A DNA stretch of 52,133 nt, from sequence record OZ470597.1; one strand, given 5' to 3'. The stretch's first letter is position 1. Each line of letters opens with the position of its first letter. The position numbers and the translations under genes are program-made. The DNA comes from a phage. Under the pieces are notes generated by a model. It was not told where the DNA came from. It was given only the letters and a program-made list of their open reading frames with translations, and ran no database searches. Positions 5,332 to 41,185 of the stretch are shown piece after piece.

Positions 5332-5844
5332 ATGGCTACAATTGGAGCAAGCTACTTTGCTGTAATGTCTCGTGCGTTACCTGGTCAAGTTTCTGACACT
5401 TCAGCTTATAATATTGATGGCGCTTGTGTTCTTGAGAATGCGGCAGGCAATCAGAATCAGTCTGTTTTTGTTGGTGTGGCGGTCCAGCATGGCGGCGTTG
5501 ACGCTATGGGCAATAAGCTAATTAAGCCGATGGCGGCAAGCGGCAAGGCTTACGGCGTTGCAATTCGATCTCACTTTCAGACAACTTCGTCTGACGGTCG
5601 AATGATTTATGAATCTGGCGGCGGAATCAACGTAATGACTGAAGGGCGTGTTTGGATGTTGGCTAAAGACGCTTCCGCGCCAGCTTTCGGCACTGCAATC
5701 AAACTGTCTGATGATGGTCAGGTCGATACCACGTCTGGCACTATCGAAACAAACTGGATCGCGACTGGTGATTTCACCAAGTTTCAAGACTTGAAGCTGG
5801 TAGAGGTTCAGGTGCAAAAAGTTCCGGCAGTTTCAGCAGGTTAA
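5332..5844 (+). CDS. putative head decoration/auxiliary capsid protein (DUF2190-like), paralog 1
   Basis: 170 aa, strong RBS, followed by strong terminator; shares GVAV...G..VW.L...P..G pattern with the next ORF. Confidence 0.35.
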   Translation: MATIGASYFAVMSRALPGQVSDTSAYNIDGACVLENAAGNQNQSVFVGVAVQHGGVDAMGNKLIKPMAASGKAYGVAIRSHFQTTSSDGRMIYESGGGINVMTEGRVWMLAKDASAPAFGTAIKLSDDGQVDTTSGTIETNWIATGDFTKFQDLKLVEVQVQKVPAVSAG

Positions 5845-5851
5845 TAAATAT

Positions 5852-5875
5852 GGCGCTCACTGAGCGCCTTTTTTA
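5852..5875 (+). terminator. intrinsic terminator
   Basis: GGCGCTCA-C-TGAGCGCC hairpin followed by TTTTTT. Confidence 0.7.
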
Positions 5876-5889
5876 TATTTGGAGTTCTC

Positions 5890-6324
5890 ATGAGTGATTA
5901 TTCAGTCATTGTTGGCGCTGAGTCGCCAGGGTGCATGGTCGATTCTTCAATAATGGTGATTAACGGATCTTTCGTGTGCGGAGATGAATTTATTGCGCCA
6001 GGTAAGATTGTGCGACTATCACATATAACAAATGGATACAAAATAGCAAGTGTTAATGGGGATCTCGTTATTGGCGTGGCAGTAAGGCCGCCGGACTCGT
6101 GCATATATGAAGAGGGCGATCCAGTTAATGTGGTTAGTCGAGGTAATGTTTGGTGCTTAACTTCTGAGAGCGAAGCGCCAGAATATGGAGATAAAGTATT
6201 TGTAACGCAAGATGGAGATGTGGCATACAGTGAAGGCGACTTGCTGATTGGTTGGATCTTTACTGGCGAACATGTAAAGGTTGATCATGATTCATATATT
6301 GTCGGGGTAAGCATTAGCGCATAA
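5890..6324 (+). CDS. putative head decoration/auxiliary capsid protein (DUF2190-like), paralog 2
   Basis: 144 aa; paralogous to 5332..5844 (IGVAVRP...SRGNVWCL...APEYGDKV). Confidence 0.35.
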   Translation: MSDYSVIVGAESPGCMVDSSIMVINGSFVCGDEFIAPGKIVRLSHITNGYKIASVNGDLVIGVAVRPPDSCIYEEGDPVNVVSRGNVWCLTSESEAPEYGDKVFVTQDGDVAYSEGDLLIGWIFTGEHVKVDHDSYIVGVSISA

Positions 6325-6336
6325 CACAAAATTATG

Positions 6337-6364
6337 TTGCACGTTTAACAAAAAATGCTATCAT
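6337..6364 (+). promoter_or_regulatory. sigma70-like promoter upstream of major capsid gene (TTGCAC-16-TATCAT), overlapping a reversed copy of the conserved element
   Basis: -35 at 6337-6342, -10 at 6359-6364; conserved element gtttaacaaaaaatgctat at 6343-6361. Confidence 0.4.
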
Positions 6365-6407
6365 TGTGGCGTTACATACTAACAGCCTTTATATATGGAG
6401 GAAGAAA

Positions 6408-7382
6408 ATGGAAAAAGAAAAATTTGATCAGCTAGATGCGGATATTGTTTCTAGCTATCTGGCTACTCGCGGCGTTAAGGGTGATGCTTCTGATATGGGT
6501 ATCTGGACGGCGCAAGAGCTTCACAAGATCCGCTCAACTGCTTACGAGAAAGAATATCCGGCAGGTTCAGCGCTTCGTGTATTCCCTGTAACTAATGAGC
6601 TTTCTGATACTGATAAGACTTTTGAATATCAGATGTTTGACAAGGTTGGTTACGCAAAAATTATCGCTGATTACACCGACGATCTGCCGACCGTTGACGC
6701 GCTGATGTCCAGCGAATTTGGTAAAGTGTTCCGCTTGGGTAACGCGTTCTTGATCTCCATTGACGAAATCAAGGCTGGTCAGCGCACTGGTAAGAGCCTT
6801 TCCACTCGCAAGGCAAACGCAGCGCAAAACGCTCATGATCAGGAAGTTAACCGCCTGGTGTTTAAGGGTTCAAAGCCGCATAAGATTCTTTCGGTGTTTG
6901 AACATCCTAACCTGACAAAGATCGTGTCAACTGGCTGGTTAAGTGCTGATGAAAACACTAAGTTCCCGCAGGCAGCATCTGATGAACTGGAAAAGGCTAT
7001 TGAAACCATTCAGACCATCACCAATGGTCAGCACCGCGCAACCAATATCCTGATTCCGCCGTCTATGCGCAAGGTTCTTTCCGTTCGAATGGAAAACACC
7101 ACTGAAAGTTATCTGGAATACTTCCAGAAACAAAACAGCGGAATCACCATCGATTCAATCGCAGAGCTTGAGGATATTGATGGCGCTGGAACGAAAGGTT
7201 GCCTGGTATATGAGAAAGACCCAATGAACATGTCGATCGAAATTCCAGAAGCATTTAACATGCTTCCGGCGCAACCAAAAGATCTGCATTTCAAAGTTCC
7301 GTGCACTTCAAAATGTACTGGCCTGACTATTTACCGTCCATTTACGCTGGTGCTTATTACTGGCTTGAAAAAATCCGGTTAA
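6408..7382 (+). CDS. major capsid protein
   Basis: 324 aa from ATG 6408 with GGAGG RBS (the listed ORF start 6366 is a GTG upstream); own promoter TTGCAC-16-TATCAT; strong terminator after stop; position after scaffold/decoration genes. Confidence 0.65.
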   Translation: MEKEKFDQLDADIVSSYLATRGVKGDASDMGIWTAQELHKIRSTAYEKEYPAGSALRVFPVTNELSDTDKTFEYQMFDKVGYAKIIADYTDDLPTVDALMSSEFGKVFRLGNAFLISIDEIKAGQRTGKSLSTRKANAAQNAHDQEVNRLVFKGSKPHKILSVFEHPNLTKIVSTGWLSADENTKFPQAASDELEKAIETIQTITNGQHRATNILIPPSMRKVLSVRMENTTESYLEYFQKQNSGITIDSIAELEDIDGAGTKGCLVYEKDPMNMSIEIPEAFNMLPAQPKDLHFKVPCTSKCTGLTIYRPFTLVLITGLKKSG

Positions 7383-7395
7383 TCGTATAACATTT

Positions 7396-7426
7396 GGGAA
7401 TCCTTAATTGGATTCCCTTTTTTATT
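7396..7426 (+). terminator. intrinsic terminator after major capsid gene
   Basis: GGGAATCC...GGATTCCC hairpin followed by TTTTTT. Confidence 0.7.
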
Positions 7427-7438
7427 GGAGGTTATAAA

Positions 7439-7711
7439 ATGGCTAAAGAAAAAACTGTAACGTTAAAGGTTTCCGGTGTGTGCCTTATCATTGTTGATGG
7501 CGAGCATTATCATCCAGGCAAAGAGTTTGACGTAGAAGAATCAAAATTGAAAACAAGCGCGTTTGAATATCTAATTGCAAAAGGCGATCTGGAGGTTAAA
7601 GACAACTCCGCATTGAACGAAGAAATCAAACAGAGCGCAGCAAGCAAGCGTAAAAAAGACCCGCGAGAGGGCAAGAGCAAAGCCGAACTTGAAGACGGCG
7701 GCATCTATTAA
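7439..7711 (+). CDS. hypothetical protein (head-tail region)
   Basis: ATG 7439 with GGAGG RBS immediately after terminator 7396-7426; 90 aa. Confidence 0.45.
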
Positions 7712-7758
7712 TAAAGAGGGCGCTTATAGCGCCCTTTGTCATATCTGGAGGAAACACA

Positions 7759-8175
7759 ATGGTTGATGAATTTTTCACTGACACAGAAATCACGCAGCAA
7801 ATCGTGAAATTAGCTCCACCGATGAAGCAGATTGATCCAGATTTAATGGTGGCATGGATTGAGCTTGCAAAGGAATTTGTTTGCAAGAAGCGGTTTAAAG
7901 AATCATATCCTAAAGCTGTTGCTCTTTATACGTTGCACCTTATGACGCTTGACGGAGCGATGAAACAGGAAGGTGAAAGCGTAGAGAGTTACTCACGGCG
8001 CGTGGCGTCATTTTCCCTGACTGGTGAATTTAGCCAGGCATTTGATCGTGTGTCCGGCGATTCAAGCGGAAAAGAGATCAGGCAAACTCCGTGGGGTAAA
8101 ATGTACGAAACGCTAAATCGCAAGAAAGGTGGTGGATTTGGCCTTGTTACTGGATTTCGGAGGCGCTGCAAATGA
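7759..8175 (+). CDS. putative head-tail connector protein
   Basis: 138 aa, GGAGG RBS, position between capsid and tail genes. Confidence 0.4.
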
Positions 8176-32145: not shown

Positions 32146-32847
32146 ATGAGTAAAGAAACTGAAGTGACATTTGAACAAATAGAACGCGAAACATTCATTG
32201 GCAATGCTCTTGCTACTGGTGGTCATTACCAGGCTGTTAAACCAAATCAATATTTCAAAGTGACTGGCAACCGCTATAACGGCAGCAATACGCCGGACAT
32301 TGTGCGCGATTTGTGGTCTACTCCGCATGAGCTTGTCGCATGGATGGAAAGTGAATACGGTGATTATGACATCGACGCGGCTGCAAGCAAAGAAAATGCT
32401 GTATGTGAAAAATTCTACAGCAAGGAAACAAATTGCTTAAAGCGTTGGTGGGGTAGTAACAAGCATATATGGCTTAATCCACCGTACAGCAATATTACGC
32501 CATTTGTTAAGAAGGCGATTGAGCAAATGGAGCACAACAACCAGATCGACATGCTGTTACCTTGCGACACATCAACAGGATGGTTTTATGAAGCGCAGCA
32601 GCGCGCAGCGGAAATCATCTGGATCACTGGCGAAGTTTACCAGGAGGACGGAACAGAATATTCCCGCACAGGACGCCTTGCGTTTACCTCTGCTCTTACA
32701 GGTAAACCAGTTCAGGGAAACAACAAAGGCAGCGTTATTTTCATCATGCGCGAACTGAAGGAAGGTGAGCAGCAGAAAACTCGATACGTTAAAATCAGCG
32801 ACATTTGCCCTTCGGTGGCAGACCGTCGCGCACGGAAACGGAGCTAA
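32146..32847 (+). CDS. dam: DNA N6-adenine methyltransferase (phage T1 Dam type)
   Basis: 233 aa; catalytic NPPY motif (WLNPPYSNI); conserved promoter element upstream. Confidence 0.85.
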   Translation: MSKETEVTFEQIERETFIGNALATGGHYQAVKPNQYFKVTGNRYNGSNTPDIVRDLWSTPHELVAWMESEYGDYDIDAAASKENAVCEKFYSKETNCLKRWWGSNKHIWLNPPYSNITPFVKKAIEQMEHNNQIDMLLPCDTSTGWFYEAQQRAAEIIWITGEVYQEDGTEYSRTGRLAFTSALTGKPVQGNNKGSVIFIMRELKEGEQQKTRYVKISDICPSVADRRARKRS

Positions 32848-36247: not shown

Positions 36248-36572
36248 CGCTCATTTCTCCGATCCTTAAAACATCCCTTACCCATTCGTTTTGCATACCT
36301 TCCAGGCTGTAAAGTTCAAACGAGAAAGGGCGATTTGCGGATCCTTTCTTACACCAGAACTTTCCACCAACTCCATCAAGATAACCAGCGGTCATCATTC
36401 TTGCGCAAAACTCTTTTGAAACGGCAGTCGCAAACATTCTCGGCGTAAATCCTGCGGCCCTTGCGAGCCGCTCACATTCTCTATGCTGAAATATAAATTT
36501 CGCTATATGTTGACGTGTAAACCATTCGAATGACTCACACCAGCGATACAGATCCAGAAGAAACATAATCAC
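36174..36572 (-). CDS. hypothetical protein
   Basis: 132 aa; start overlaps stop of upstream large gene (ATGA). Confidence 0.45.
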   Translation of the reverse strand: MIMFLLDLYRWCESFEWFTRQHIAKFIFQHRECERLARAAGFTPRMFATAVSKEFCARMMTAGYLDGVGGKFWCKKGSANRPFSFELYSLEGMQNEWVRDVLRIGEMSDEELFASNANRQNIEVLRRKFNLT

Positions 36573-38152
36573 CCCAGCAATGTTGGATTTACAAAAACAA
36601 CGCCATTAATCACACAAATATAATTTCTTTCTTCAAGCATCGGCAGCAGTTGCGTTTCCATACGCTTCATTACGCCAGCCTGACCAACAAAAGGCTTAAC
36701 TTTTCGTGCAGCCTCATATATGGCGCGCACATTCAAGATCCCCTTGTTAGCCTTACCGTGTCGAGTGATAATCTCGATTAGTTTACCCATTTCAGCATCA
36801 TCACCAGCATAGCCAGAAGCGTTGGCGGCGCTAATGTATGTTTTGCTCAACTCGCTAAACATCAGCAGTGCTTCTTGAACGGTTTCAACTTCAATCTCTT
36901 TCGACTTCTGAGGGTATCCACCAGGATTAAACCAGTTGCGGATAGTGTGCAAAACTGAAGCAATCCTGATCACCTGCTTATCCATTTTGCCAAGCGCGCC
37001 GCGCAGCATTGTATGCGAATACTTTCCGCCATCAGCAAGGTGCGGTTCCATCTCCTGACGAGCCATGTTAAGGACTCGCATTGCTGATTTGCTGATCTTA
37101 AGCTGTATGTTTGATTCACTCATGATGTTATGGATCAGCTTAAAATATTGGCTTTTCAGTTCTCCATCAACAGGCTCATAAGTAGAATCACCGTTATCAT
37201 CAACAAATTTTCGACGACCTAAAAATGATTCTTCACGCACAAGCAAATAACGCTCACTCACACCGATACCGCGCGATCCTGCATCCATGATGGCATTAAT
37301 TGTTTCATCCTGGGCAATTACTGCCATACAGCCAAGAGCTTTAAAACTCATGTTATTGTCTGCGTTTGCGCGAGCTATAGAAACATGACCGTGATCCCAT
37401 GCTTTCAGCACAAGTTCGCTGTTGGTTTTACGTTCGCTATTGGCATATGTCAGACCTAAAAGGCTGTTAATACTCGTTGCCTCGTCTGAAATCACAGCAA
37501 AGTTACCCTGGCGATTGTTGATTCTTGCAAGTCCTTCCGGCGTGGTGTCTGACACAGGGAAAACGATGTCACACATCTTTTCCAGTTTTTCTTCCAGATC
37601 TTCTTTCTCCTGGTATAGCGATTCCATATCAGCACCAGATCGCTCGCTCTTCATCTCTTTTGCAAGACCTGCCAACTTTGCCTGAATCTTTTTCCGCTCC
37701 TTCTTTCGCTGATCATTAATTCTTTCCACTTCAGCAACCATAGGAGCAAGAGCCAGGCTGTTAACGGCAGATTTACCAGTTGAAGGAGGCTGGCTTGTGA
37801 CAACGTAAAGAGCGGTTGGCTGATCCGTTCCGTGATACTCAACCGTGAAGCGTCCAAGCATTGCAGCAGACACGCAGCCGATAAAATGCATATAGGCCGA
37901 TGATTCAGGGAATTGAACAGAGCGAGCAATGTTTCGCGCCAACTTACCAACAACATCAACATCATTGCCAAGAGAAATTACAGGGTAGCGATCGTTTCCG
38001 TTATTAACATCATTAACCTCACCCCAAAAGCTGGACGATTGACGGTATCCGTTAGCCTGAATGGACACGCGCACCGGAGACAATCCTTGTGCATCAGCTA
38101 ATTCGATAATTTGTTTTGGTGTTAGTTTATTGGTTTCAAACGAAAAATTCAT
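36569..38152 (-). CDS. large hypothetical protein (possible DUF3987-like replication-associated protein)
   Basis: 527 aa from ATG 38152 (AAAGGAG RBS; ORF extends to 38212); conserved promoter element immediately upstream; P-loop-like PPSTGKS is non-canonical. Confidence 0.5.
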   Translation of the reverse strand: MNFSFETNKLTPKQIIELADAQGLSPVRVSIQANGYRQSSSFWGEVNDVNNGNDRYPVISLGNDVDVVGKLARNIARSVQFPESSAYMHFIGCVSAAMLGRFTVEYHGTDQPTALYVVTSQPPSTGKSAVNSLALAPMVAEVERINDQRKKERKKIQAKLAGLAKEMKSERSGADMESLYQEKEDLEEKLEKMCDIVFPVSDTTPEGLARINNRQGNFAVISDEATSINSLLGLTYANSERKTNSELVLKAWDHGHVSIARANADNNMSFKALGCMAVIAQDETINAIMDAGSRGIGVSERYLLVREESFLGRRKFVDDNGDSTYEPVDGELKSQYFKLIHNIMSESNIQLKISKSAMRVLNMARQEMEPHLADGGKYSHTMLRGALGKMDKQVIRIASVLHTIRNWFNPGGYPQKSKEIEVETVQEALLMFSELSKTYISAANASGYAGDDAEMGKLIEIITRHGKANKGILNVRAIYEAARKVKPFVGQAGVMKRMETQLLPMLEERNYICVINGVVFVNPTLLG

Positions 38153-38177
38153 TGATGATAACTCCTTTTGATGCGGC

Positions 38178-38221
38178 AATAATACCGCACCAATGCTACC
38201 CGCATTTAACAAAAAATGCTA
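38178..38221 (-). promoter_or_regulatory. conserved-element promoter for 36569..38152 gene
   Basis: minus-strand ATAGCATTTTTTGTTAAAT (38204-38221) and -10 TATTAT (38178-38183). Confidence 0.5.
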
Positions 38222-38447: not shown

Positions 38448-38945
38448 CTATTTCCCGTGGTTTTCATGGAATCCATAATCAATCAACAATCTATCTCTTT
38501 CTGATATAGCCGACTCCAAGCATGTGTGCCACCCGCCATAAATCAATCTACCATCAACCCTCACATTAACCTTGTATTTACCCCTATTTTCGTACCAGAT
38601 AATACCTATATGACCGCTTGTATTGTTAGACCGCATGGATAAATTTCGTCCGTTTATCGACCTTGTAACCAGCCTCAAGTTTTCTATCCTGTTATCAGTT
38701 CTGTCATGGTTTAAGTGATCAACCTCCATGTTTGGCGGAATATCTCCGTTATGCATAATCCAAACAACCCTGTGAGCATAAATCTGCACACCTTCTATAG
38801 TTAGCTTTACATACCCTTTGCTGTTTACGGTTCCAGCCTCAAGACTACGTTTTCTACCCTTTCTCCATTCCTTCCAGTAAAGAATCCCGTCGTCGTATCT
38901 TAGTTGACTTAGAAGTATTTCGCTTGAAATTTTGCAGTTGCACAT
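38448..38945 (-). CDS. HNH homing endonuclease
   Basis: 165 aa; MEVDHLNHDRTDNRIENLRL HNH motif, C-terminal DYGFHENHGK; GGAGG RBS; 5' end overlaps upstream gene by 37 nt. Confidence 0.8.
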   Translation of the reverse strand: MCNCKISSEILLSQLRYDDGILYWKEWRKGRKRSLEAGTVNSKGYVKLTIEGVQIYAHRVVWIMHNGDIPPNMEVDHLNHDRTDNRIENLRLVTRSINGRNLSMRSNNTSGHIGIIWYENRGKYKVNVRVDGRLIYGGWHTCLESAISERDRLLIDYGFHENHGK

Positions 38946-39292
38946 TCGAAACCCTCCTCGCAGCGATATAGAGTAAAACGATCACCTTGTTCGTCGTAAA
39001 CATACCCAGCAACAGCGCCAAGAACTCTACCACTTTCCACTTGATATCTCTTTCCTTTCTTGAAAGTTTTCTTAACGCTAAGAGAATGGTCAACGCAAGT
39101 GCAAAGTATTGTTTTTGTCTTGATATGACGATAGTCAGACTCAACAGCGTTTTGCCACTTGCTACCCTTTGTAATGCTCTTTACCTGGAATTGTTCCAAC
39201 TCGATCACATCATCGCTACCAGCAATTTTTTCGTATACAGCTTTATAACGACCGTTCATCAAAACGTTGGTTTTATTGCAGATAACTTTCAT
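38909..39292 (-). CDS. hypothetical protein
   Basis: 127 aa, AAGGAG RBS, conserved promoter element upstream. Confidence 0.5.
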   Translation of the reverse strand: MKVICNKTNVLMNGRYKAVYEKIAGSDDVIELEQFQVKSITKGSKWQNAVESDYRHIKTKTILCTCVDHSLSVKKTFKKGKRYQVESGRVLGAVAGYVYDEQGDRFTLYRCEEGFECATAKFQAKYF

Positions 39293-39323
39293 CGTTTATT
39301 TCTCCTTTCGTTTCGGTGAAGTG

Positions 39324-39367
39324 ATTATGCCAGGCTTTTACACCTGGCTTTTAACAAAAAGTGCTAT
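39324..39367 (-). promoter_or_regulatory. conserved-element promoter for 38909..39292 gene
   Basis: minus-strand ATAGCACTTTTTGTTAAAAG (39348-39367), spacer hairpin GCCAGGTGTAAAAGCCTGGC, -10 CATAAT (39324-39329). Confidence 0.55.
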
Positions 39368-40050
39368 TTTGCGTTAGCTTCAAAGACGGCGCGAGCAAAA
39401 CCGCGCGGTGTGAGGGAGCGGAGTTGCTTTGTTCTGGCAGACTTACCGCCTAAAAACTTCCAACCCCAAAAGAACATTACGCCCTCATCATTGCATAACG
39501 GCTTGCGTTCCGGTTCGGTAAATCCGTTGCCGCACCAGATAGCCGTCCTTTTTGTGTAGCCATCCTTTAGCGGCATCTTGGGGTGAAAAGATCCATCGGA
39601 TTCGTCCAGGTAGTTACCAAAATCGCGCGGATTGAAATAAAAATCAGGCTTGCGCCATAGCGTTGATAGTCGGCCTACAGGATTCTCAGCCATCCAGGGA
39701 ACACCGAAATGATTCCCGACAGTTTCAACCATGATTGCATTTTTGAGCGCGACCTGAACATCATCATCGCTTCGCGCGTGCTTGATTCCTGATTGGGCAA
39801 ACATGGTGCAGTCTGGAAATCCAAATACAATATCTGGTTTTGGAATATCCATCTTACTGATTCTTTCAATGAAATTTTCATCAATCCACATATTCACATA
39901 ATGCAGATTTTCATGCTTCATCTTGATGAAATATTCGCCGTGATTTCCTTCATCAGCGTTAAAGCAATAGCATTGATAGCCAGCCTTAGCATATTCAAGC
40001 AGCATGATTCCAGATCCATCAAACATTGAGTAAGCAACTTTATTTCCCAT
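39364..40050 (-). CDS. C5-cytosine methyltransferase-like protein (divergent, compact)
   Basis: FDGSG (motif I-like), GFPDC (motif IV PC-like), ENP (ENV-like) at spacing typical of C5-MTases; start uncertain (ORF extends to 40110, overlapping the HNH gene). Confidence 0.4.
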   Translation of the reverse strand: MGNKVAYSMFDGSGIMLLEYAKAGYQCYCFNADEGNHGEYFIKMKHENLHYVNMWIDENFIERISKMDIPKPDIVFGFPDCTMFAQSGIKHARSDDDVQVALKNAIMVETVGNHFGVPWMAENPVGRLSTLWRKPDFYFNPRDFGNYLDESDGSFHPKMPLKDGYTKRTAIWCGNGFTEPERKPLCNDEGVMFFWGWKFLGGKSARTKQLRSLTPRGFARAVFEANAK

Positions 40051-40567
40051 GATTTTTATGATACCCCAATTCATTCTCGGCTTTACGTTTTGCGGCAACA
40101 GCATCTCCAAAACTGGAGAAACAACCTATATAAATCCTACATCCTCGCTTTCCGCTTCCAACCCTTACAACCCATTTTCCATGTTTATTTTTATGCACAC
40201 CTGGTATGCCACTTGTATTGTTTTTCTGCTTTGATGTGTTTCGCATATTTCCTTTGTGATCTTTTAATTCAAAGTTTATTGCTCTGTTATCAGTAGTAAT
40301 GTGATTTACGTGATCAACCTCCATTCCTTCCGGTATAGGCCCATAGTGCATTTCATAGCATATTCTATGAACTTTCAGATTATAACGCTTTCCATTTACA
40401 GTAAGTGCGGTTTCTAAATATCGACCACCACTACCCAAAGAGCCAACCTCATTACCAGCATTGCAAGCATTCCATTGTTTAACTCTTGATTGGTGAATAT
40501 CTTTTCTTTCTTTCCAGAACAGCTTTCCAGTTTCTGGATTGTATGTAAAGTAATCGTGCCAATTCAT
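40040..40567 (-). CDS. HNH homing endonuclease (paralog)
   Basis: 175 aa; MEVDHVNHITTDNRAINFEL HNH motif, C-terminal ELGYHKNHGK; GAGGTGA RBS. Confidence 0.8.
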   Translation of the reverse strand: MNWHDYFTYNPETGKLFWKERKDIHQSRVKQWNACNAGNEVGSLGSGGRYLETALTVNGKRYNLKVHRICYEMHYGPIPEGMEVDHVNHITTDNRAINFELKDHKGNMRNTSKQKNNTSGIPGVHKNKHGKWVVRVGSGKRGCRIYIGCFSSFGDAVAAKRKAENELGYHKNHGK

Positions 40568-40575
40568 TCATCACC

Positions 40576-40800
40576 TCAAAACGGAAAGCATCGCGCACAG
40601 TTAGGATCAAAATTGCAGCCGCAATCATTGACAATCATCGTTGGATCTGCAAATGCAGCGCCGCATTCATGATCCATATCCATATCACCTAACGCATCAT
40701 CAAGCGTCCTGATCTTATATGCAACTTCAAGCGCTGCCTCTTTATTTAATCCGGCATCTTCAGCCATTTGCAGGCGCTCAAAAAATCCGTCCTGACTCAT
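40576..40800 (-). CDS. hypothetical Cys-rich protein
   Basis: start at ATG 40800 with AAGGAG RBS; C-terminal Cys/His cluster (HECG...CGCNFDPNCARC). Confidence 0.45.
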   Translation of the reverse strand: MSQDGFFERLQMAEDAGLNKEAALEVAYKIRTLDDALGDMDMDHECGAAFADPTMIVNDCGCNFDPNCARCFPF

Positions 40801-40910
40801 TTCATAAACTCCTTGATAGCAACCAGAACAATAGCAAGACCAGCAGTGACAACCCAAAGACCCATAAGGCCAATCATCACTCCCAATAAAATATCAAGAA
40901 ATTTCATCAT
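40797..40910 (-). CDS. hypothetical small membrane peptide
   Basis: 37 aa hydrophobic ORF (MMKFLDILLGVMIGLMGLWVVTAGLAIVLVAIKEFMK), AAGGTGA RBS, stop overlaps next start (ATGA). Confidence 0.3.
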   Translation of the reverse strand: MMKFLDILLGVMIGLMGLWVVTAGLAIVLVAIKEFMK

Positions 40911-40957
40911 TATTATCACCTTTATTTAAAGGGAGGCGAAAACCTCCCATTGATTAA

Positions 40958-41185
40958 TCAGACAGCCTTCCAGCTTTCAATAAACATGCTGTTTTCTTCC
41001 AGCAGTTTAATCAATTCTTCGCGTGTATATTTTCGGATTTTACTACCAGGATGCGAGCCAACAACAAACACACCTTTACCGCTTGTGATTGTTAACTGGT
41101 TGATTCCACAAGATTTATCCATTTTCACAGCGACGCGGTGATGTGCATCAATAGTGTGCATGATGTTAGTGACTTTAGCTTTCAT
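40958..41185 (-). CDS. hypothetical protein
   Basis: start at ATG 41185 with GAGG RBS. Confidence 0.45.
   Translation of the reverse strand: MKAKVTNIMHTIDAHHRVAVKMDKSCGINQLTITSGKGVFVVGSHPGSKIRKYTREELIKLLEENSMFIESWKAV

Follow-up and report, generated by a model that had tools for sequence, protein, structure and literature searches.

A homologue of known effect, the 711-bp 'dcm' of phage K42 (a KarlJaspers-like member of the Drexlerviridae), has been described in the context of retron defense. The mutants of K42 that escape the retron Ec86 all disrupt this gene, and its expression is toxic only in retron-bearing cells (bioRxiv 10.1101/2023.08.16.553469). LC-MS (liquid chromatography coupled to mass spectrometry) found high 5-methylcytosine (5mC) in the msDNA (multicopy single-stranded DNA) of cells expressing K42 dcm, and the C82A/E128A/K175A/K176A mutant, in which K175 and K176 are predicted substrate-binding residues, neither raised 5mC nor triggered the retron. 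A Dcm of the K42 type is encoded by 34 of the 35 Ec86-sensitive phages in the same study (bioRxiv 10.1101/2023.08.16.553469; cited among the references of PMC12804668 in its later form, Wang et al., Cell Rep 2024;43:114857). Here we describe a member of this family in the phage sequence OZ470597.1, the whole analysed stretch of which (52,133 bases) is referred to as the window:

39364..40050, minus strand: coding sequence (CDS) of a Dcm-like C5-cytosine DNA methyltransferase, 228 amino acids (aa) plus stop

The protein has the N-terminus MGNKVAYSMFDGSG and the C-terminal end EANAK. It is probably an active orphan DNA cytosine-C5 methyltransferase, dependent on S-adenosylmethionine (AdoMet), and one of the compact 'Dcm-like' enzymes of phages. 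Neither the gene nor its annotation nor its family is new, and T1-like phages carry it routinely.

The published residues of the K42 enzyme can be placed through phage KarlJaspers (Bas06, MZ501090), whose bas06_0055 (QXV82308.1) is 711 bp long. On its translation, C82 lies in FPPCT, E128 in ENP and K175-K176 in YFKKT, in exact agreement with the K42 numbering. KarlJaspers Dcm and the window protein are 46% identical (228/236 residues aligned, E 3e-71), belong to the same length class (236 versus 228 aa) and share the C-terminal LRSLTPRGFARAVFEANAK. C82, E128, K175 and K176 of K42 Dcm correspond to C81, E122, K167 and R168 of the window protein, and the first three are invariant in a set of 80 divergent family members, 26-55% identical to the query protein. 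The candidate motifs of the window protein are as follows:

40009..40023, minus strand: motif I, FDGSG, residues 10-14, a loop that follows strand 1 and is predicted to bind AdoMet; its counterpart in the M.HaeIII alignment is FSGAG
39805..39819, minus strand: motif IV, FPDCT, residues 78-82, in which Cys81 is predicted to be the catalytic nucleophile; this Cys is aligned with those of M.HaeIII, DNMT2, M.HhaI and DNMT3A
39679..39687, minus strand: motif VI, ENP, residues 122-124, where strand 5 ends; hhalign pairs it with ENV of M.HhaI
39535..39558, minus strand: motif VIII-like strand YTKRTAIW, residues 165-172, its identity as motif VIII suggested by the strand order in the structural model
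39385..39420, minus strand: C-terminal RSLTPRGFARAV (residues 211-222), which to judge from sequence pattern and position is probably the helix of motif X

A phmmer search of the Protein Data Bank (PDB) with the single sequence placed residues 8-97 on residues 5-85 of M.HaeIII (E 0.0065), with FDGSG on FSGAG and GFPDCT on GGPPCQ. Alignment of the family profile by hhalign placed FPxC on FPCQ and ENP on ENV of M.HhaI (the sequence of 10mh_A), and FDG on FDG (of FDGIA) and PxC on PCN of DNMT3A; the DNMT3A sequence had one mismatch to 5yx2_A in the hhalign comparison, fixed before hmmsearch. The first-pass annotation had read FDGSG, GFPDC and ENP as motifs I, IV and VI, and they indeed align in register, motifs I and IV with M.HaeIII and motifs IV and VI with M.HhaI. 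Its description of the catalytic motif as PDC rather than PCQ was slightly off: the motif does depart from PCQ, with Asp for Pro before the Cys and Thr for Gln after it, but the register is FPDCT on GPPCQ, and the Cys is kept. Profiles built from 40 or 80 family members gave no significant match in the PDB (the lowest E values were 0.23, for DNMT2, and 0.75, for M.HaeIII), so the bridge to the canonical enzymes is made by the single-sequence search and by the comparison of folds.

The departure from the PCQ consensus is the first argument for a catalytically dead or repurposed fold, as the first-pass annotation had entertained. On that account methyl transfer would be abolished by Asp in place of Pro ahead of the Cys, together with the missing Gln behind it and the missing recognition domain, and the protein would act by binding DNA or a host factor, for instance as an anti-restriction decoy. 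A Pfam score under the threshold, a chain some 100 residues shorter than M.HhaI or M.HaeIII, and a loop after the Cys (residues 87-91) modelled with low confidence could all be cited in its favor. The whole family, however, has FPxCT without the Gln and is without the large recognition domain, the methylating Dcm of K42 included. The residue before the invariant Cys varies freely (P, D, S, E, V, Q). At this position, representatives at 50% identity have Pro in 87 cases, Glu in 10, Val in 9, Asp in 5 and Ser in 5, while among the 120 closest relatives Asp is found in 87, Ser in 20 and Pro in 10. The position is a tolerant one beside an invariant Cys, and the Asp is a clade-level variant and not a sign of decay.

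The remaining conservation points the same way. The 80 divergent members have C81, G88, E122, P124, P141, Y165, K167, T169, W172 and P180 invariant, and F78, P79, T82, N123, R211, S212, P215, G217 and A221 at least 90% conserved. Within the clade, G12 and S13 of motif I are invariant, and F10, D11 and G14 are at least 90% conserved. Such (near) invariance of both the AdoMet-side and the catalytic residues would be needless for a pure binding protein. The ratio of nonsynonymous to synonymous substitution rates (dN/dS) is 0.095 against phage BEK7 and 0.14 against phage PeterMerian, from small counts. With the Cys and the Glu of ENP invariant in 80 members, dN/dS at about 0.1 and a K42 homologue that raises 5mC in vivo, the suggestion of a degenerate or repurposed protein is not supported, and we regard a dead fold as very unlikely.

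The structure was predicted with AlphaFold2 from a 40-sequence alignment. The mean predicted local distance difference test (pLDDT) value was 89 and the predicted template modelling score 0.88; only residues 87-91, the loop just after the catalytic loop, were below 50 in pLDDT. Structure prediction had been proposed in the first-pass annotation, and it returned a C5-methyltransferase fold and not a non-methyltransferase one. The Foldseek top matches of the model were DNMT3A and DNMT3B, and the nearest models in BFVD were phage 'cytosine DNA methylases'. In two fold searches DNA methyltransferases ranked above RNA enzymes. The fold comparison gave the following scores and numbers of aligned residues:

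DNMT3B: 14.2, 192 of 228
Prophage C5-methyltransferase 3g7u: 12.1, 179
DNMT3A: 12.0, 190
Carboxymethyltransferase CmoX, 8yf3: 11.8, 182
M.MpeI: 11.1, 188
M.HhaI: 11.0, 187

Unrelated Rossmann methyltransferases aligned over about 130 residues only. The order of elements in the model (strand 1 with motif I, strand 4 with the FPDCT loop, a long helix, strand 5 with ENP, the YTKRTAIW strand and a terminal helix) fits the large domain of the C5-methyltransferases. The terminal helix, residues 216-226, carries TPRGFARAVF; GNSV of M.HhaI and GRSWSVP of DNMT3A are, by pattern and position, the candidate counterparts of motif X. A family-specific and highly conserved insert is found at about residues 135-168, between strands 6 and 7. 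Where the classical enzymes hold their recognition domain and motif IX, between candidate motifs VIII and X, the model has about 35 residues (roughly 175-210), and no motif IX was recognised in the 228-aa protein. With the recognition domain shrunk to this extent, DNA recognition must differ from that of M.HhaI or Dcm.

The enzyme, though active, might have a different main substrate or chemistry: RNA or tRNA in the manner of DNMT2, chiefly single-stranded or hairpin DNA, or the transfer of another group, such as carboxymethyl from host carboxy-S-adenosylmethionine (Cx-SAM), which phage CmoX transfers. CmoX (PDB 8yf3) has 372 aa as crystallised (8yf3_A), and its Arg binds the Cx-SAM carboxylate. 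Its selectivity lies in this Arg at the position of Asn304 of M.HhaI (PMC12783734), and the window protein has, in the probable motif X, Arg211, near-invariant in the family, in a register that is set by pattern. A further point for a different substrate is that the one substrate shown for K42 Dcm is the msDNA hairpin; the host was dcm+, and its native Dcm had left the msDNA poorly methylated. The R-S pattern nevertheless recurs at the C-terminus of DNMT3A (GRSWSVP), a true AdoMet methyltransferase, and Arg211 is therefore not diagnostic. For the K42 homologue, LC-MS found 5mC. CmoX is accompanied by a phage CmoA and usually by the ligase CmoY (PMC12783734); no such partner genes were recognised in the window or annotated in the sister phages, and neither a cmoA nor an amide-ligase gene is annotated in KarlJaspers or PeterMerian. 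Hypermodification genes likewise were not recognised in the window or in the KarlJaspers and PeterMerian annotations, where many small genes lack a function. The ranking of DNA methyltransferases over RNA enzymes, mentioned above, argues against an RNA substrate. The CmoX-like carboxymethyltransferase that Arg211 had brought up as a candidate was set aside in view of the R-S pattern of DNMT3A and the 5mC yielded by K42 Dcm, and we hold a different substrate or chemistry in general to be improbable.

The family to which this DNA cytosine methyltransferase belongs is large. Residues 3-227 matched profile positions 14-219 of 247 in PHROG 757, 'DNA methyltransferase' (E 1.8e-78). When 1.84 billion cluster representatives were searched with a profile built from 40 relatives, there were 1770 clusters (50% identity) at E of at most 1e-3 and 736 at E of at most 1e-10; among the best 150 clusters listed, nearly all full-length members had 200-260 aa. 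By tblastn a homologue was found in 1494 phage records, 1471 of them covering at least 80% of the query; many are annotated as cytosine methylase, and the hosts of the gene include Klebsiella phages of about 50 kb and Escherichia and Enterobacter phages of about 145-150 kb. Pfam PF00145 at E<0.01 reached one of the 80 divergent members and left 79 without a match, and PADLOC gave marginal methyltransferase matches only. As judged from these searches, the proteins form a large and coherent family of compact phage and prophage proteins that is missed by the curated methyltransferase models. PF00145 and NCBIfam miss the compact family, and therefore automated annotation often calls such genes hypothetical; with 1770 clusters, the gap in the databases is a considerable one. 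The compact fold also occurs as a domain in larger phage proteins, such as BFVD A0A6J5SE15 (1397 aa) and A0A6J5NPY6 (1126 aa), so that the unit also travels as a module. Longer family members of 548, 401 and 334 aa were seen as well, and the annotation of one of the large proteins gives it a helicase/UvrB domain at the N-terminus.

From the family and from the chemistry of the canonical C5-methyltransferases, we infer the following course of reaction. FDGSG and the C-terminal RS...P helix would hold AdoMet, and the target cytosine would be flipped out of the DNA. Cys81 in the FPDCT loop would attack C6 while Glu122 of ENP protonates N3; the methyl group would then be transferred to C5, and beta-elimination would free the enzyme. 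The minus-strand gene block would supply the enzyme early in infection, and the enzyme would methylate the replicating phage DNA and, incidentally, that of the host. Its role is most plausibly that of a guard against cytosine-sensitive restriction, and the anti-restriction function raised in the first-pass annotation is plausible. As a side effect, and as with the K42 homologue, the phage of the window may be sensed by the retron Ec86 (Eco1) if the enzyme methylates the msDNA hairpin.

The extent of the protein depends on the choice of start codon, which is tied to the gene immediately upstream:

40040..40567, minus strand: HNH_3 homing-endonuclease gene, immediately upstream of the methyltransferase (Pfam HNH_3, E 9.4e-15)

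At its full extent the minus-strand open reading frame (ORF), 39364..40110, would give 248 aa from a TTG, and an in-frame ATG at 40050 gives the 228 aa. The last 11 nt of the HNH gene (528 bp) overlap the start of the methyltransferase ORF. It could thus be argued that there is no genuine product of 228 aa, the real form being one of 244-248 aa that starts within the HNH gene, or the ORF having been silenced by the HNH insertion. The mechanical ORF does begin at TTG 40110, and the 244-aa database entries and the 246-aa PeterMerian CDS (6187..6927 of the compared PeterMerian stretch) use upstream starts. Phage BEK7, however, is without the upstream HNH gene and has a 228-aa CDS, 97% identical, from the equivalent ATG; the distant homologues all start 4-8 residues ahead of the [FY]DGSG motif; and the extra N-terminal residues of the 244-246-aa versions are the out-of-frame 3' end of the HNH gene, which makes their start 16-18 codons early. 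Because BEK7 and the distant homologues begin at the matching point, we place the start at ATG 40050 on comparative grounds. The first-pass annotation had left the start uncertain owing to the overlap with the HNH gene; the overlap is real, and BEK7 settles the start. A consequence for annotation is that several records carry CDSs that are too long and extend into the HNH gene.

The insertion itself can be read from the empty site in BEK7 and KarlJaspers. In both, there is no HNH gene, the small upstream gene ends CCGTTTTGA, followed by GG, and the DNA alignment of the junction has a GAGG Shine-Dalgarno sequence 6-7 nt ahead of the methyltransferase ATG. The upstream HNH insertion sits exactly between the stop of the small gene with its GAGG and the methyltransferase ATG (junctions 40040..40060 and 40560..40580). 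The inserted gene uses the former ribosome-binding site, and codons 2-5 of the methyltransferase are replaced (KQKI to GNKV). This displacement of the native GAGG is what would speak for a silenced ORF; against it, several phages share the layout of HNH gene plus methyltransferase at 93-95% nucleotide identity and have an uninterrupted methyltransferase ORF. That the 228-aa protein is not a genuine product is, in either version, highly improbable.

The active methyltransferase that we favor appears to be one of at least two alleles of a fixed locus. In KarlJaspers the Dcm gene occupies the same place, between a 74-aa small gene and a 127/128-aa gene, with the DUF3987 'putative helicase' downstream; the window copy has the HNH gene inserted at its start and the KarlJaspers copy does not. 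The identities between window and KarlJaspers are these:

Dam-like methyltransferase (32146..32847): 99%
Small gene upstream of the Dcm-like gene: 95%
127-aa downstream gene, with residues 1-60 nearly identical and the C-terminal half diverged: 80%
Dcm-like methyltransferase: 46%

The downstream break in identity falls within the 127-aa gene, after about residue 60 (window 38909..40857 compared with KarlJaspers 39629..41031). Since the flanking genes are 80-99% identical and the methyltransferase 46%, the allele looks like one exchanged as a cassette at a fixed locus between closely related phages. Alleles found in Klebsiella, Enterobacter and Erwinia phages, and in some prophages, resemble that of the window more closely, at 55-67%. 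The two alleles differ in motif IV (FPDCT here, FPPCT in KarlJaspers) and strongly in the loop after the Cys and at about residues 140-165 and 175-200; these most diverged segments are the parts that would have to contact DNA. It is a tentative and rather doubtful possibility, yet one worth stating, that the Asp-Cys allele methylates a different sequence from that of the K42 enzyme, possibly a shorter or non-palindromic one, so that sister phages would differ in protection and in visibility to Ec86; the family would on this account be a minimal C5-methyltransferase without the classical recognition domain, perhaps acting as a DNMT3-like oligomer. If the two locus alleles do differ in target, this would help to explain why methyltransferase content does not predict restriction sensitivity in the Drexlerviridae.

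By analogy with K42, the target is probably CCWGG-like. In the literature searched, no direct specificity determination was found for the C5-methyltransferases of T1-like phages, and we looked at the word composition of the window. CCWGG (117 observed, 121 expected) and GATC (288 observed, 292 expected) occur as often as expected. Many short palindromes, C-rich ones among them, are strongly avoided: TCCGGA, AAGCTT, GGCGCC, AGGCCT, GCCGGC and CTGCAG are absent, with 8-19 copies expected for each (19 for TCCGGA and 18 each for AAGCTT and GGCGCC), GGATCC occurs once against 15 expected, and GAATTC (2 copies), GATATC (1 copy) and CTAG are also avoided. GGCC is depleted to 0.51 of expectation and CCSGG to 0.15. 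GCGC, GCWGC and GCSGC are not avoided; the 378 copies of GCGC, about three times the figure from base composition, are accounted for by its trinucleotides. The pattern fits, as weak evidence, a genome in which most restriction sites are avoided and the Dam and Dcm sites are covered by methylation, and it argues, again weakly, against a non-specific methylase of all cytosines. For CCWGG in particular the word statistics are weak, because GCGC and GCWGC are also unavoided and most hosts are dcm+.

Several observations weigh against the reading of the protein as an active C5-methyltransferase and have to be set beside it. The Pfam PF00145 match reached 13.8 bits against a gathering score of 22 and covered the N-terminal 89 residues only, and the NCBIfam search gave no match; membership in the canonical family is founded on fold and motifs and not on a curated sequence model. 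With the family profile, hhalign and hmmsearch against M.HhaI and the DNMT3A catalytic domain aligned only the stretches of motifs I-IV or IV-VI, and motifs VIII and X are assigned by inference because no sequence method aligned the C-terminal half. The tested K42 homologue has Pro-Cys (FPPCT) and this clade Asp-Cys, the allele here being known from its sequence. In the K42 study CCWGG was assumed from E. coli Dcm, its support being CCTGG mutants of the msDNA in a dcm+ host (bioRxiv 10.1101/2023.08.16.553469), and the BASEL study found no simple link of methyltransferase genes with restriction resistance in the Drexlerviridae (PMC8594841). Finally, the methyltransferase has lost its native GAGG ribosome-binding site through the HNH insertion, and its expression may therefore be reduced or depend on coupling to HNH translation.

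The other genes of the locus and the second orphan methyltransferase of the phage are as follows:

38909..39292, minus strand: conserved 127-aa gene directly downstream of the methyltransferase (from the ORF list; 80% identical to KarlJaspers bas06_0054)
38448..38945, minus strand: second HNH_3 homing-endonuclease gene, downstream (Pfam HNH_3, E 1.7e-22; 'homing endonuclease' in BEK7)
36569..38212, minus strand: 547-aa DUF3987 protein, downstream in the same gene block (Pfam, E 2e-43; 'putative helicase' in BASEL phages)
32146..32847, plus strand: T1-type Dam N6-adenine methyltransferase, the other orphan methyltransferase of the phage (Pfam Dam PF05869, E 1.8e-61)

The product of the 127-aa gene has no Pfam match. 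The position of the methyltransferase between two HNH genes, as given in the first-pass annotation, agrees with these results: both are of the Pfam HNH_3 type, with the 127-aa gene preceding the downstream one. The two HNH proteins are 35% identical to each other, and both insertions are variably present or absent among the sister phages. No restriction endonuclease gene was found beside the methyltransferase, which is surrounded by HNH_3 homing genes and by small genes of the phage. The homologues in the genomes of Bdellovibrio and Serratia lie in prophage replication regions, among neighbors without a recognisable restriction enzyme, and as far as gene content tells, the phage and prophage members of the family are orphans with no partner restriction enzyme. 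The Bdellovibrio prophage homologue also adjoins a DUF3987/primase-polymerase-like gene (5403..7787 of that locus).

A search for a local promoter or terminator near the gene gave nothing beyond the shuffled expectation. The 71-nt spacer after the methyltransferase stop (39293..39363, minus strand) holds a 7-bp hairpin at about 39322..39341, GCCAGGU(6 nt)GCCUGGC, with a CCWGG site in each arm and no T-run; the fold of 91 nt has z = -2.46 against shuffles. The AAGGAG that serves the 127-aa gene as ribosome-binding site follows shortly after the hairpin, which may be due to chance.

The window is the DNA of a T1-like phage of the Drexlerviridae, Tempevirinae; at the DNA level, such phages of Escherichia, Shigella and Salmonella (Hanrivervirus, Warwickvirus) match the region at 93-97% identity. 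The gene itself is 93-97% identical in BEK7, PeterMerian (Bas05), JLBYU07, Poky and Kalemo (Escherichia) and in vB_GS71 (Salmonella). PeterMerian bas05_0050 of the BASEL collection is annotated as 'Dcm-like C5 cytosine methyltransferase', and other sister phages have 'putative DNA cytosine methyltransferase', 'DNA methyltransferase' or 'putative cytosine DNA methylase', with only 'hypothetical protein' in BEK7. About 20 unannotated 'Campylobacter phage' records (host Campylobacter jejuni), among them MG065636, MG065638, MG065640, MG065641, MG065673, MG065679 and MG065687, are 88-96% identical to the E. coli T1-like region and are likely to be mislabelled or contaminating phages.

Compared with the canonical enzymes of PF00145, the window protein has motif I, the Cys of motif IV and the Glu-Asn of motif VI in register. 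The canonical enzymes are considerably larger, M.HhaI having 327 aa and M.HaeIII 324 aa, about 100 residues more than the 228 found here, and E. coli Dcm is larger still; the first-pass estimate of a compact protein of about 230 aa was thus accurate. They possess a large recognition domain, which the window protein is without, and they have Pro-Cys-Gln where the compact family has x-Cys-Thr, while the insert between strands 6 and 7 is conserved in the compact family and is not a canonical feature. According to the model, the closest solved fold is that of DNMT3. DNMT3A and DNMT3B differ in being only 11-16% identical, in their size of about 285 residues and in acting as homo- or hetero-oligomers on CpG, yet they share with the window protein the FDG form of motif I, the R-S pattern at the C-terminus (by inspection) and a small recognition domain.

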